Assembly: GCA_049698775.1 (NCBI GenBank)
Contig: JBAVYM010000049.1
Coordinates: 41,958 to 105,957 of the forward strand
DNA: 64,000 bases
Direction: 5' to 3'
Source of the DNA: Gammaproteobacteria bacterium
GTDB taxonomy: Bacteria > Pseudomonadota > Gammaproteobacteria > Natronospirales > REEB76
The notes below the pieces were generated by a model. The model was not told where the DNA came from. It did not search any database and saw only the letters and a list, made by a program, of their open reading frames with translations. The translations under genes were made by a program, and so were the position numbers. Position 1 is the stretch's first letter; each line of letters starts with the position of its first letter. Below are positions 31,781 to 48,531 of this stretch, in pieces.

Positions 31781-32209
31781 GTGTGCGACCAGCATTGGAA
31801 ACTGCGTGGTTTCTCGCTCATCGAGCTGATGATCGTGCTGGCGATCATCGGCGTGATTGCCGCCATCGCCTATCCGTCCTACGAACGCTCGGTGCTCAAG
31901 TCGCACCGCTCGGATGCCGAGAACCTGCTCAGCAACGACGCCCAGATCCTGGAACGCTGCTATACCCAGAACTTCTCTTACAGCGCAGCCTGTACCCCGA
32001 CCTTGGCCACGTCCACGCAATACCACTACTACACCCTGACCCGGCCACCCACTACGGTCGCGGCCACCACCTACGCCCTCACCGTCACCGCGATTGGTAA
32101 TCAGTTGAACGACACCGATTGCCACAGTTTCAGCATTGATAACACCGGCAAGAAGACCGCCCTGAATTCCGGCGATACCGACAATTCCACCGTCTGCTGG
32201 AACCAGTAA
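31781..32209 (+). CDS. pilE: type IV minor pilin PilE (cassette 1)
   Basis: 142 aa, GTG start, KLRG|FSLIELMIVLAIIGVIAAIAYPSY, C-terminal disulfide-loop cysteines. Confidence 0.85.
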   Translation: MCDQHWKLRGFSLIELMIVLAIIGVIAAIAYPSYERSVLKSHRSDAENLLSNDAQILERCYTQNFSYSAACTPTLATSTQYHYYTLTRPPTTVAATTYALTVTAIGNQLNDTDCHSFSIDNTGKKTALNSGDTDNSTVCWNQ

Positions 32210-32386
32210 TTCCAGCCGCCGCGGGCCGTGCAGCCCGCGTTCCATCCGGCCCAGCCAGCCCTTTTCATAATCCGCCTGACGCGGCCTGAATCCCTTCCAG
32301 GTTGGATTATTGCGTTTATAAGCGTATTTATAACTCATTGTTTAATAAAGATATTTATATTCATATCCATTTATCGTAAAATAAAT

Positions 32387-32441
32387 GGCGTTGGTCGGTT
32401 TTTCCTTAACATAAGCTAAATCCTCGCCTATAGTTCAGCCC
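32387..32441 (+). promoter_or_regulatory. cassette-2 promoter block (paralogue of 24164..24218)
   Basis: TTAACA 32406..32411, 17 nt, TATAGT 32429..32434, then 7 nt to ATG 32442. Confidence 0.5.
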
Positions 32442-32486
32442 ATGAACGCGCAACACCGCGCCACTTATAAACATGGGAATGGAAGC

Positions 32487-33032
32487 ATGAACACTATCTA
32501 TCGCCACACACCCGCCCACCCGCGGCAGCTCAACGCCGGCTTCAGCCTGCTGGAAGTCCTGATCGGGCTGGTGATCCTGTCAGTGGGCCTGCTGGGCATC
32601 GTCGGCCTCATGACCACCACGCTCAAGACCAACAGCAGCGCCTACATGCGCACCCAGGCCACGGCCATGGCCTACAACATGGTTGACCGCATGCGCGCCA
32701 ACCTGCCGGCCGTCACTGGCGGCGGTTATGACCTCACCATGCCGCCGTCCGCCGCTACCGGCACCGACCCCACCACTTGCGACGCTTCCGCGTGCAGCAC
32801 TGCGCAACTGGCAACCTACGATCTGGACCAATGGGAATTCGATCTGGCGAACCGGCTACCGCAGGGCCGCGGTTCCATCACCACCGCCAACAGCGCCACC
32901 TCGGCCAACCCGGCCGCCGTCACCACGGTCACGGTCACGGTGCTGTGGAACGACAGCCGCGCCAATCAGGCGCTGGGTGGCGCACCGGCGGCCACCACTT
33001 TCAGTCTGGCCGTCAACTCGGCGCTGCAATAG
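32487..33032 (+). CDS. pilV: type IV pilus minor pilin PilV (cassette 2)
   Basis: ORF 32442..33032. ATG 32487 has a GGAAG SD and gives an 18-aa leader (MNTIYRHTPAHPRQLNAG|FSLLEV). The alternative in-frame ATG 32442 sits 7 nt after TATAGT. Confidence 0.85.
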   Translation: MNTIYRHTPAHPRQLNAGFSLLEVLIGLVILSVGLLGIVGLMTTTLKTNSSAYMRTQATAMAYNMVDRMRANLPAVTGGGYDLTMPPSAATGTDPTTCDASACSTAQLATYDLDQWEFDLANRLPQGRGSITTANSATSANPAAVTTVTVTVLWNDSRANQALGGAPAATTFSLAVNSALQ

Positions 33033-33033
33033 G

Positions 33034-47100: not shown

Positions 47101-47724
47101 ATCGTGTATTTCGGCACTGGCCAGCTTCTGGGTACACCGGACTTGAGCACCACCGGTACCCAGACTTTCTACGGTGTCTGGGACAAGCCGGGCTTGTCGA
47201 GCGTTCTCACGCGCAGCAATCTGGAGCAGCAAACCCTGTCCGCCCCCACGCCGGGTCCTGCCGGCACCACGGTGCGGACGGTGACCAGCAATACGATCAA
47301 CTGGAGCAGCCAATACGGTTGGTATGAAGACCTGTCCATTTCCGGCGAGCGCGTGGTCACGAATCCGCGGCTCGAGAACAGCGCGGTGGTATTCACCACC
47401 TACGTGCCTACCACCAGTAGTTGCGCGGTGGGCGGCGCCTCCTGGCTGCTGGCGGTCAATTTCAAGAACGGCGGCTCGTTCCCCAGTCCGGAACTGGACC
47501 TGAACGGCGACGGCAGCCTGAACTCTGGCGACCAGGTGGGCGGGCAGAATCCGGTGGGCCTGTACCTGGGAGCGGTGTATTCCGCGGCACCTACCGTCAT
47601 CTCGGCCAGTTTGGGCAGCGTAAAAGCTGTCAAACTGGTATCCGAATCCAGCGGCGCCATCAAGGCGGTCGGCCAGGCTGGTCCGCCCAGCCAGCGTCAA
47701 TCGTGGCGGGAAATTCAAAACTAG
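44194..47724 (+). CDS. pilY1: PilY1 tip-associated adhesin, cassette 3 (short form)
   Basis: 1176 aa. Same C-terminal propeller blocks (MLYVGANDGMLHAID, VYAGDLQGNLWKV). EF-hand-like loop DLNGDGSLNSGD at 47497..47532. Lacks the roughly 180-190-aa insertion of copies 1 and 2. Confidence 0.9.
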   Translation: MNRQVAVKVVFVKAGVATLAAVLTASIGVISLPAFAATPVVSISNIPLTLVAPAHPQVILAVPNSQSMDGDLSGAIMTGSGASSIPSQLGSSSSPVDFTVPAGFTPPVSGGIAGSSQPYTSVIGGNQVDNSPSRLNVAKSAIQAILDSFVGSTDFGLLTYNTGAPTLYNTWLYAMSNAGGFTFSNTNTPAPPLGEYIANPCYNIPSGNTVYTDCNSMKALLGANLLTMPYMLVQFSSDDPDINDVLYAGGEAPVCLVYGAVNPANPYTHYTLGDYNDGGITVTYGSNINACANTTGPTNAGFVPFQPQTMYMQRGFGYYTTATDNTGNLLLSLQTAGNNPTPAQIAATIAKFTPYLQPETNNTGSGEIKAVAVQSPIAGILKRAVAYYATNPPSSNGCPPQRYVIMITDGLPTEDLSGKNWPPLGSAAAQSSPNGYGVSATFNGDGSLNTTTDQALTDTIAQLAALKAAGVKTYIVGVGAGVDPALNPQAAATLTAMAMAGDTSNYYAATSPAQVALDMTAILSAIEAANMSTSSAAVNSTGLKAGAVAYQAQFTSADTPWQDWTGNLVAYPILANGTVSTTTPLWSSQTQLDLQSPANRIIATWDPAVSTGIPLEWCSSLCGAGSIDSSTALGLDLMTSPTDLLGSARLNYLRGVHSDEQQFAGGTFRNRSHVLGDIVDSNPLFVGPPNGPFQDPSYISFELAQASRAPMLYVGANDGMLHAIDPSTGNEKFAYVPNGVFTNLINLTKPTYNQNHQFFVDGSPTSGDVQFSDSSWHSILVGGLNAGGNSIYALDVTNPAAITSESALASDVLWEYSDPSGLLGLTYSQPFIARTNVTGSNFVVFFGSGYNNSDGNPYLYAVNAQTGTLLARINLCASVAPNPCNSGLPNGLSSPVALNSGGALSLPDDTVYAGDLQGNLWKVNISNSNPASWTVQLLFQARDSSGNPQAITVAPVVSLHPNFPRDTGTIVYFGTGQLLGTPDLSTTGTQTFYGVWDKPGLSSVLTRSNLEQQTLSAPTPGPAGTTVRTVTSNTINWSSQYGWYEDLSISGERVVTNPRLENSAVVFTTYVPTTSSCAVGGASWLLAVNFKNGGSFPSPELDLNGDGSLNSGDQVGGQNPVGLYLGAVYSAAPTVISASLGSVKAVKLVSESSGAIKAVGQAGPPSQRQSWREIQN

Positions 47725-47763
47725 GCGCAGCGAGCCCGGCGCTTGCTGCAGGAGGTTGGACAA

Positions 47764-48087
47764 ATGTCGAGAGCATTCAAACCCGTATTCATCGTGGCAG
47801 GTCTGCTCATGGCTGCTTGCCTGTGCTCCGGAGCGTTCGCGAGCTACGCAGTGCCCGATGAGAACATCGGGACCGGCACCATCCAGGCGGTGGACTATGT
47901 CAACCATACCGTTACTGTGGCGGGCCATGTGTACCGGATTTCCCCCAAGGCTGCCTACTCAGACAACGGCAAGAATGCCGGCGTCTTGCAACCCGGCGTG
48001 AAAATCCAGTTCACCTCGAATGGCCCGGTGAATAATCCCGGCTCGCGCATCGTCAATATCGTTGTGCTTCCTCCGGCATCGGACTAA
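47764..48087 (+). CDS. small secreted protein at the pilY2 position (cassette 3)
   Basis: ORF 47743..48087; ATG 47764 follows GGAGG. Signal peptide present. Core IQAVDYVNHTVTVAGHVYRISPKA is a divergent paralogue of the other two. Confidence 0.65.
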   Translation: MSRAFKPVFIVAGLLMAACLCSGAFASYAVPDENIGTGTIQAVDYVNHTVTVAGHVYRISPKAAYSDNGKNAGVLQPGVKIQFTSNGPVNNPGSRIVNIVVLPPASD

Positions 48088-48096
48088 GATTCCGGC

Positions 48097-48531
48097 ATGT
48101 CAAATAGCATTCATGAACCATGCAGCCGCGGTTTCTCACTCATCGAGCTGATGGTCGTGGTGGCGATCATCGGCATCATTGCCGCCATCGCTTATCCGTC
48201 CTATGAGCGCTCGGTGCTTAAGTCCCACCGTTCGGATGCCGAGAACCTGCTTACCAACGACGCCCAGATCCTGGAACGCTGCTATACCCAGAACTTTTCG
48301 TACAGCGTGGCCTGTACCCCGAACTTGGCCACTTCCACACAATACCGCTATTACACCCTGACCTCACCGGCCGCTTCCATTACCTCGAATGCGTACGCAC
48401 TAAGAGCCACAGCCGTTGGTAATCAGTTGAACGACACCGATTGCAACAGCTTCAGCATCAATAACACCGGCCAAAAGACCGCCCTGAATTCCGGCGGCAC
48501 CGACAATTCCACCGTCTGCTGGAACCAGTAA
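48097..48531 (+). CDS. pilE: type IV minor pilin PilE (cassette 3)
   Basis: 144 aa with CSRG|FSLIELMVVVAIIGIIAAIAYPSY. The last 99 nt differ from cassette-2 pilE at only 3 positions (hand count). Confidence 0.85.
   Translation: MSNSIHEPCSRGFSLIELMVVVAIIGIIAAIAYPSYERSVLKSHRSDAENLLTNDAQILERCYTQNFSYSVACTPNLATSTQYRYYTLTSPAASITSNAYALRATAVGNQLNDTDCNSFSINNTGQKTALNSGGTDNSTVCWNQ

Follow-up and report, generated by a model that had tools for sequence, protein, structure and literature searches.

The window analysed here, a 64,000-nt stretch of contig JBAVYM010000049.1 from a gammaproteobacterium, contains three tandem type IVa pilus minor-pilin/PilY1 cassettes (c1, c2 and c3), which lie on the + strand between an acyl-CoA dehydrogenase gene and gshA (Table 1). 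Each cassette closes with a copy of pilE, and the subject of this report is the similarity of these three copies to one another as compared with the divergence of the genes around them. The order fimU-pilV-pilW-pilX-pilY1-pilY2-pilE, with pilE last, is seen in all three cassettes as well as in all relatives. It resembles the Pseudomonas aeruginosa fimU-pilVWXY1Y2E operon, with the same gene families in the same order, although P. aeruginosa has a single operon whereas the window holds a tandem array of three, of which one lacks fimU and another carries an additional GspH-like gene. The families were assigned on Pfam and NCBIfam profiles, i.e. GspH, TIGR02523 for PilV, PF16074 for PilW, PF14341 and PF13681 for PilX, PF05567 for PilY1, a weak PF14481 match for PilY2, and PF16732 plus the N-methylation motif for PilE. 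All 12 pilin-like genes of the window fall within the cassettes, and no major pilin gene was found in its 64,000 nt.

All three PilE copies carry RGFSLIELM, i.e. a class III prepilin leader with a terminal Gly, after which come F-x-x-x-E and a hydrophobic helix. The N-methylation profiles are matched with 37.9 bits (PF07963) and 36.5 bits (TIGR02532), and the globular domain is assigned to the PilE/ComP family (PF16732, 67.3 bits versus a cut-off of 27.3). In addition, PilE2 matches PDB entry 4NOA, the P. aeruginosa "Type 4 fimbrial biogenesis protein PilE", over residues 38–140 (E = 1.4e-8).

Divergence of pilE and its neighbours within the array

Mature PilE comprises 132 residues in each copy. 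A first-pass annotation of this DNA had counted by hand 12 differences between PilE1 and PilE2 and 17 between PilE2 and PilE3, 14 of the latter within one 23-residue block. These counts were reproduced, and the block corresponds to mature residues 78–100 (RPPTTVAATTYALTVTAIGNQIK versus SPAASITSNAYALRATAVGNQLN). Likewise, the final 99 nt of pilE2 and pilE3 differ at three positions, as had been claimed, and the contention that the neighbouring genes have diverged much further holds, with 58–71% identity for the other cassette genes compared to 86–91% for pilE. In the 405-nt stretch that starts with the Arg-Gly-Phe codons and ends with the stop codon, nucleotide identity amounts to 91% (c1–c2), 86% (c1–c3) and 86% (c2–c3). 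The synonymous divergence of pilE (dS, Nei–Gojobori) is 0.27, 0.43 and 0.48 for the same pairs and thereby 2–5 times below that of its neighbours, as all other cassette genes show dS values of 0.8–2.1; the ratio of nonsynonymous to synonymous divergence (dN/dS) is similar throughout. The dS comparison that the annotation had proposed as a check consequently gives a non-uniform picture, low in pilE and high in the neighbours. As dS is low and dN/dS is similar to that of the neighbours, the low divergence of pilE reflects more than constraint at the protein level.

The same contrast is apparent when the array is compared with itself. In self-blastn, pilE gives matches of 86% identity for c1–c3 and c2–c3. 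The corresponding c1–c2 match (31520–32211 versus 39224–39891) is only 82% identical over 694 nt because it extends back into the pilY2-like gene. Besides a few short conserved N-terminal pieces, the remaining matches between cassettes reach 67–70%. When synonymous differences were followed in sliding 40-codon windows, none of the six pilE windows of the c1–c2 pair exceeded the 5th percentile of the distribution given by the 102 windows outside pilE; where c3 is one of the pair, the windows over the divergent block climb to background. Separately, a synonymous dip was noticed in the N-terminal third of pilV (24880–25000 versus 32550–32670, c1–c2), where the proportion of differing synonymous sites (pS) is 0.24–0.26 in two 40-codon windows compared to a mean of 0.53. 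This may be an old, small conversion tract or the result of constraint on the codons of the N-terminal helix.

An alignment of the three loci with their flanks, together with sliding identity, delimits the similarity sharply. Beyond the pilE stop codon identity drops to about 30–40%. At the 5′ side, similarity to c3 starts at the Arg-Gly-Phe codons, where the prepilin is cleaved, and the leaders and upstream DNA are unrelated, whereas c1 and c2 remain similar across the leader and as far back as the 3′ end of the pilY2-like gene. The c1/c2 patch within the latter has a window pS of 0.40, and as its peptide is also conserved across genomes it is weak evidence of conversion.

Within the 405-nt tract 74 sites are variable, and any two copies differ at 36–57 of them. 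Labelled by the odd copy, the sites read 32233123312233332331132112113211 / 33333333333333333333333313 / 22222 / 11111111 / 222, in which 24 successive sites set c3 apart, followed by 5 that set c2 apart, 8 that set c1 apart and 3 that again set c2 apart. A runs test with permuted site order gave P < 1e-5 for all sites and P = 0.0025 without the divergent block. The longest concordant run spans 24 sites for c1–c2 (P < 1e-5) and 8 sites for c2–c3 (P = 2e-4), while P = 0.02 was obtained for c1–c3. These permutation tests are our own implementations, styled on GENECONV and runs tests. Recombination tests of the kind that the annotation had called for thus detect a mosaic beyond chance, and the several short tracts with differing partners are the kind of trace that repeated conversion leaves. 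The 24 consecutive sites at which c3 alone deviates occupy alignment positions 238–285 (P < 1e-5), and in this block pilE3 has diverged as much as unconverted DNA. An AlphaFold2 model of PilE2, built from the three-sequence alignment, reached a pLDDT of 39 and was hence not used for mapping the block.

Table 1 Coordinates of the pilE tracts, the cassettes and their flanking genes in the window
Feature	Coordinates	Strand	Basis or remark
Homogenised tract, pilE1	31805..32209	+	Arg-Gly-Phe codons (prepilin cleavage site) to stop; alignment, sliding identity, variable sites
Homogenised tract, pilE2	39485..39889	+	identity collapses right after stop codon
Homogenised tract, pilE3	48127..48531	+	leader peptide and upstream DNA not shared with c1 or c2
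Divergent block, pilE3 (mature residues 78–100)	48364..48432	+	escaped homogenisation
Matching block, pilE1	32042–32110	+	first 50 nt (to alignment site 287) identical to pilE2 block
Matching block, pilE2	39722–39790	+	first 50 nt (to alignment site 287) identical to pilE1 block
Possible older shared c1/c2 patch, pilY2-like gene	31520..31640	+	pairs with 39224–39344; 107/131 nt identical
Cassette 1	24219..32209	+	ORFs and translations; family profiles run on fimU and on homologous cassette 2/3 proteins
fimU	24219–24761	+	
pilV	24821–25357	+	
pilW	25367–26491	+	
pilX	26488–27066	+	
pilY1	27111 (or 27054)–31262	+	
pilY2-like	31388–31762	+	
pilE1	31781–32209	+	
Cassette 2, without fimU	32442..39889	+	Pfam/NCBIfam matches
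pilV	32442–33032	+	
pilW	about 33034–34140	+	
pilX	34156–34710	+	
pilY1	34755–39053	+	
pilY2-like	39098–39445	+	
pilE2	39461–39889	+	
Cassette 3	40574..48531	+	ORFs and family profiles
GspH-like, fimT or fimU paralogue	40574–41104	+	
fimU	41236–41823	+	
pilV	41830–42372	+	
pilW	42375–43517	+	
pilX	43565–44134	+	
short pilY1	44194–47724	+	
pilY2-like	47764–48087	+	
pilE3	48097–48531	+	
Acyl-CoA dehydrogenase gene	22484–24100	-	
gshA	48666–50240		

Grouping of pilE in related genomes and alternative explanations

The locus was compared with that of about a dozen uncultured "Natronospirales"/Gammaproteobacteria assemblies, mostly metagenome-assembled genomes (MAGs), with PilE identities to the window of at most 74%. 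A look-up of the exact PilE2 protein returned no record, and the only place where gshA was recovered was a 1.8-kb Logan contig from SRR27973342. It is syntenic in these relatives: the acyl-CoA dehydrogenase gene is found upstream (76–86% amino acid identity, retained in nine relatives' loci) and gshA downstream (73–82%, retained in ten). In a nearest-neighbour count, 14 of 18 PilE sequences have their closest relative within their own genome, compared to 0/21 for PilY1, 0/19 for PilX, 1/19 for PilW, 1/19 for PilV and 0/17 for the PilY2-like protein. Three of the four PilE exceptions are due to the 58-residue partial sequence cl268_A, and the fourth is DX4_A, whose nearest sequence is the corresponding copy of the close relative YP5. 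Neighbour-joining trees place the pilE copies of seven genomes in same-genome clades with 92–100% bootstrap. For PilY1, same-genome clades receive 0% and cassette-type clades 91–100%, e.g. 99% for W_c2 (window, c2) with MFD05_B, 91% for W_c3 with MFD05_C and 100% for the short type. As the neighbours group by cassette type and the flanks are conserved, the duplication predates the species splits, and independent recent duplication is ruled out.

The PilY1 types that define these clades differ in length. PilY1 of c3 is about 250 aa shorter than its counterparts in c1 and c2, from which it differs by the absence of roughly the long-form residues 150–330. "Long" and "short" PilY1 form separate clades in all relatives, which suggests functionally distinct tip adhesins.

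Two pilE copies on one contig are available for DX4, YP5, MFD03 and MFD05, and three further metagenome contigs with two copies (L059, L067 and L072) give the same picture. Tracts in relatives are bounded as in the window, with the 5′ edge at the mature N-terminus and the 3′ edge 0–80 nt past the stop codon. Homogenisation proceeds in segments. The N-terminal part (mature residues 1–55) and the C-terminal part (DTDC to the end) are genome-specific nearly everywhere: within genomes these parts are 90–100% identical, except for the C-terminal part in MFD03 (77%) and SE15 (88%), compared to 50–88% between genomes, except in close pairs such as DX4/YP5 (84–97%). The middle part often differs within a genome (W_c3 versus c1/c2, 75%; DX4_A versus B/C, 65%; MFD03, 76%; cl268, 80%). 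The idea that middle-block types track the cassette type was rejected, as W_c3, from a cassette with short PilY1, shares its type with MFD03_A, from one with long PilY1. In summary, the concerted evolution or gene conversion among pilE copies that the first-pass annotation had put forward is borne out by low dS, mosaic sites and by-genome clustering in relatives, and recurrent interlocus gene conversion among these copies is very probable indeed.

The DX4/YP5 pair provides a view of a single event. Cassettes DX4_C and YP5_B are orthologues, with 97% identity and a pS of 0.12 in PilY1, but the pilE of YP5_B equals that of YP5_A (100% identity), and at the protein level it shares 92% with DX4_A versus 77% with DX4_C. 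As the pilE of YP5_B matches YP5_A while the body matches DX4_C, it was overwritten after the DX4/YP5 split. This bears on the best-surviving alternative, by which cassette bodies were imported from other lineages via resident pilE anchors, with no conversion from copy to copy. Cassette complements do vary among genomes, and in cassette A of DX4 and YP5 the identity of the PilY1 proteins is only 67%, compared to 91% for the DNA that begins at pilE. However, import alone leaves the resident pilE copies no more alike than before, and neither the short alternating tracts inside pilE nor the direct evidence of overwriting in YP5 is accounted for. Moreover, the cassette types are common to genomes at a syntenic locus and their dS is saturated, so that homogenisation must have acted on old copies. 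As a replacement for conversion we therefore regard import as improbable; as an additional process it is probable, with foreign cassette bodies taken up between pilE anchors. In this pair, the pilY1 genes of cassette A (L006 5724–9850 versus L008 5673–9800) are 64–73% identical at the DNA level, compared to 83% for the fimU-pilX part upstream, a pattern suggestive of the replacement of a cassette body through recombination with a foreign allele.

Gene conversion was further weighed against an explanation without recombination, in which pilE is the most constrained and slowest gene of the cassette, owing to purifying selection and perhaps codon or mRNA constraints. The helices at pilin N-termini are highly conserved in general, and the dN/dS of pilE (about 0.21) is the cassette minimum, matched only by fimU. 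Within genomes pilE is often 100% identical, with pS values of 0.00–0.35 versus 0.31–0.71 for the neighbours. Yet between genomes, for cassettes of the same type, pilE is saturated like its neighbours (pS 0.44–0.67, save DX4/YP5), and its proportion of differing nonsynonymous sites (pN, 0.10–0.32) equals or exceeds the PilY1 value in 11 of 15 same-type comparisons. It is therefore not an intrinsically slow gene. The by-genome clustering and the significant site mosaic likewise argue against constraint, which as a sole cause is very improbable.

The least credible alternative is an assembly artefact, i.e. repeats collapsed or consensus-polished in short-read assemblies: MAG contigs L010, L011, L014, L017 and L034 break inside pilE, as expected of a repeat that an assembler cannot resolve, and some copies on the same contig are 100% identical over about 560 nt, but the pattern repeats in about a dozen independent assemblies from different studies with graded identities of 81–100%, and collapse cannot produce the window copies, which differ at 36–57 of 405 sites in a structured mosaic.

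Cassette gain and loss

A second proposal of the first-pass annotation concerned the pilE copies as near-identical direct repeats that serve as substrates for RecA-dependent loss or amplification of cassettes. The number of cassettes per syntenic locus ranges from one (L019) over two (L003 and L006) to three in DX4 (L008 + L007) and MFD05 (L013 + L015). An alignment of YP5 with DX4 shows that YP5 lacks exactly cassette B of DX4: YP5 10013–10470 matches DX4 pilE_A, and YP5 10013–20405 is collinear with DX4 from pilE_B on, at 91% identity. Both ends of the indel therefore lie in pilE, exactly what unequal pilE × pilE recombination would predict. The longest exact runs shared between the pilE copies of the window are 42–71 nt, compared to 31–32 nt for the longest match between cassettes outside pilE, which makes pilE the array's best substrate for recombination. 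In Escherichia coli, the minimum homology for RecA-mediated recombination is roughly 25 nt, which the pilE runs exceed. The part of the proposal that concerns substrates thus stands, given one to three cassettes in relatives and indel ends in pilE, while "near-identical" was an overstatement at 86–91% identity. A role for the pilE repeats in cassette loss and gain is supported indirectly by these alignments, and we infer that conversion depends on RecA. A metagenome scan for cassette-number variants of the same species returned no match above 75% PilE identity, apart from 88% over one 50-residue fragment.

No evidence was found for a dedicated recombination-promoting element when the array was scanned for Chi sites and G-quadruplex (G4) motifs. 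E. coli Chi sites are scattered over the array, with none inside pilE. The 27-kb array has two G4-like motifs, at 31333 (+) and 30702 (-), the nearer about 450 nt upstream of pilE1, and none near pilE2 or pilE3. In c1, between pilY1 and the pilY2-like gene, a short palindrome is followed by a G-quadruplex-like run (31318–31354, CCCCCTCTCCCCTTGTGGGAGAGGGTTGGGGTGAGGGG); this element is unique in the window and absent from the other two cassettes.

Some cassettes are incomplete. A c2-type cassette without pilE was observed in two relatives, MFD05 and REEB76. In MFD05 (L013 17791–18021) the pilY2-like gene is directly followed by fimU of the next cassette, and a search of this interval for a pilE remnant found none. 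In REEB76 (L002 1000–3220) a 447-aa ORF (1522–2865) occupies the pilE slot; by eye only, it resembles a GGDEF diguanylate cyclase. In the window, pilE1 is followed by an AT-rich spacer (32210–32441) and then by pilV of c2, with no fimU; a second cassette without fimU is also present in DX4, MFD05 and SE15. In c3 of the window, the first two genes (40574–41104 and 41236–41823) are both GspH-like. A scan for promoters and terminators gave counts no higher than in shuffled sequence, the sole noteworthy site being an AT-rich promoter-like one before c2 (32406–32434). The 684-nt spacer between c2 and c3 holds two perfect 28-nt direct repeats (GCGGTGTGTGACACCGCTCCTACGCAAG; 40093–40120 and 40240–40267, 147 nt apart), which resemble REP-type intergenic elements and have no further copies in the window. 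Outside the array, the G+C content is 0.50 at 56001–58000 compared to about 0.60 elsewhere. This segment lies directly upstream of a tRNA gene (58421–58494, -) and may be a small acquired island.

Proposed mechanism and comparison with known systems

Taken together, the favoured explanation is that the tandem cassettes are ancient and that pilE has been homogenised by recurrent short-tract conversion while the rest diverged by cassette type. We assign it a probability of roughly 0.85. Conversion here consists of recurrent, short-tract, non-reciprocal homologous recombination among the pilE copies, with tracts that begin at the codon for the mature N-terminus and end at the stop codon, whereas the remainder of each cassette has diverged to saturation and evolves by cassette type. 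As to why conversion persists in pilE alone, PilE would be a cassette-independent subunit that joins any PilVWX-PilY1 tip complex to a single major pilin. Conversions in pilE would then be neutral or even favoured, by spreading changes that match a fast-evolving major pilin; those in cassette-specific genes would be purged, as they would break co-adapted interfaces. Once diverged, the cassette-specific genes would also no longer offer uninterrupted homology for recombination.

The functional part of this explanation is the less secure one. In the P. aeruginosa model, PilVWXY1 form a core that FimU and PilE connect to PilA (PMC5979040). By analogy, PilE might be the adaptor that docks all tip complexes onto one major pilin, as the first-pass annotation had it, a rationale that we adopt tentatively and with slightly more doubt than conviction. 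Cassettes without PilE, and a PilE that diverges fast between genomes and is uniform within them, fit this rationale. In a further-reaching form, PilE may be a universal, interchangeable "socket" that allows one machine and one major pilin to mount any alternative PilVWX-PilY1 tip, with the copies kept co-adapted to a rapidly evolving major pilin by selection-filtered conversion. This notion is rather doubtful at present. If true, it would explain why PilE diverges between genomes at least as much as PilY1 and yet remains uniform within them; the unconverted middle beta-hairpin block would be a separate specificity or exposed module, and the conversion map would predict, at residue level, which PilE surfaces face common and which face variable partners.

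Several observations weigh against the explanation as a whole or against parts of it. FimU, the other proposed connector, is not homogenised (c1–c3 amino acid identity 55%, dS about 2), and "adaptor to the major pilin" alone therefore fails to predict which genes convert. The major pilin, with which PilE would co-vary, lies outside the window. The middle block stays divergent in several genomes, with types that do not follow the cassette type, and the pilE copies of the window have drifted by 9–14% since they were last homogenised, i.e. conversion was not very recent here. Lastly, most relatives are MAGs, and assemblers can collapse repeats and thereby inflate the 100% identities.

If recurrent conversion and the adaptor rationale hold, any pilE copy should be able to stand in for any other, a cassette that lacks pilE should function with one borrowed from another cassette, and PilE should co-vary with the major pilin. 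The pilE repeats also mark the junctions of cassette gain and loss. Beyond this locus, the pattern lends independent evolutionary support to PilE, rather than FimU, as the cassette-independent link between tip complexes and the major pilin.

The pilE/pilS system of Neisseria is comparable in that non-reciprocal transfer of short segments between pilin copies makes mosaics. It differs in diversifying one expressed major pilin from silent, truncated donors in a G4-dependent manner, whereas here full-length minor-pilin genes are homogenised. The shared name pilE is a coincidence of nomenclature. Variation of the Neisseria type was considered and rejected: the window has three complete ORFs with leaders inside operons, they belong to a minor-pilin family, and there is no G4 near pilE2 or pilE3. 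Complete genes, the minor-pilin family and the homogenising outcome together exclude it.

A functional parallel is found in Myxococcus xanthus, where three minor-pilin/PilY1 sets work with one major pilin and one machine (PMC7541494). As in the window, several alternative priming or tip sets are proposed to serve one major pilin and one machine, and the N-terminal regions of PilY1 differ between sets. In contrast, PilE is missing from the M. xanthus clusters, which have four minor pilins and were analysed as three separate clusters rather than as a tandem array. In the literature, we found no report of concerted evolution of a component of an M. xanthus cluster, nor of gene conversion or concerted evolution in minor pilins.

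The process itself, concerted evolution by interlocus gene conversion, is already known. A genome-wide survey recovered only 26 recurrently concerted prokaryotic genes, mostly subunits of complexes and including flagellin, and none of those listed is a pilin (PMC6053082). The window shares several traits with known cases of this process such as tufA/tufB, amoCAB, hao and flagellin copies (surveyed in PMC6053082): the paralogues predate the species split, orthologues are syntenic, similarity is higher within genomes, tract edges are sharp, and the products belong to a multi-subunit assembly. What sets it apart is that conversion affects only one of the seven genes of a cassette, the co-transcribed neighbours being saturated, and that homogenisation is segmental, with the middle block often escaping. 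A single gene of a repeated cassette that is homogenised, and only in segments, is unusual, and it adds a clean example that spans a clade to the few prokaryotic genes recognised as recurrently concerted.

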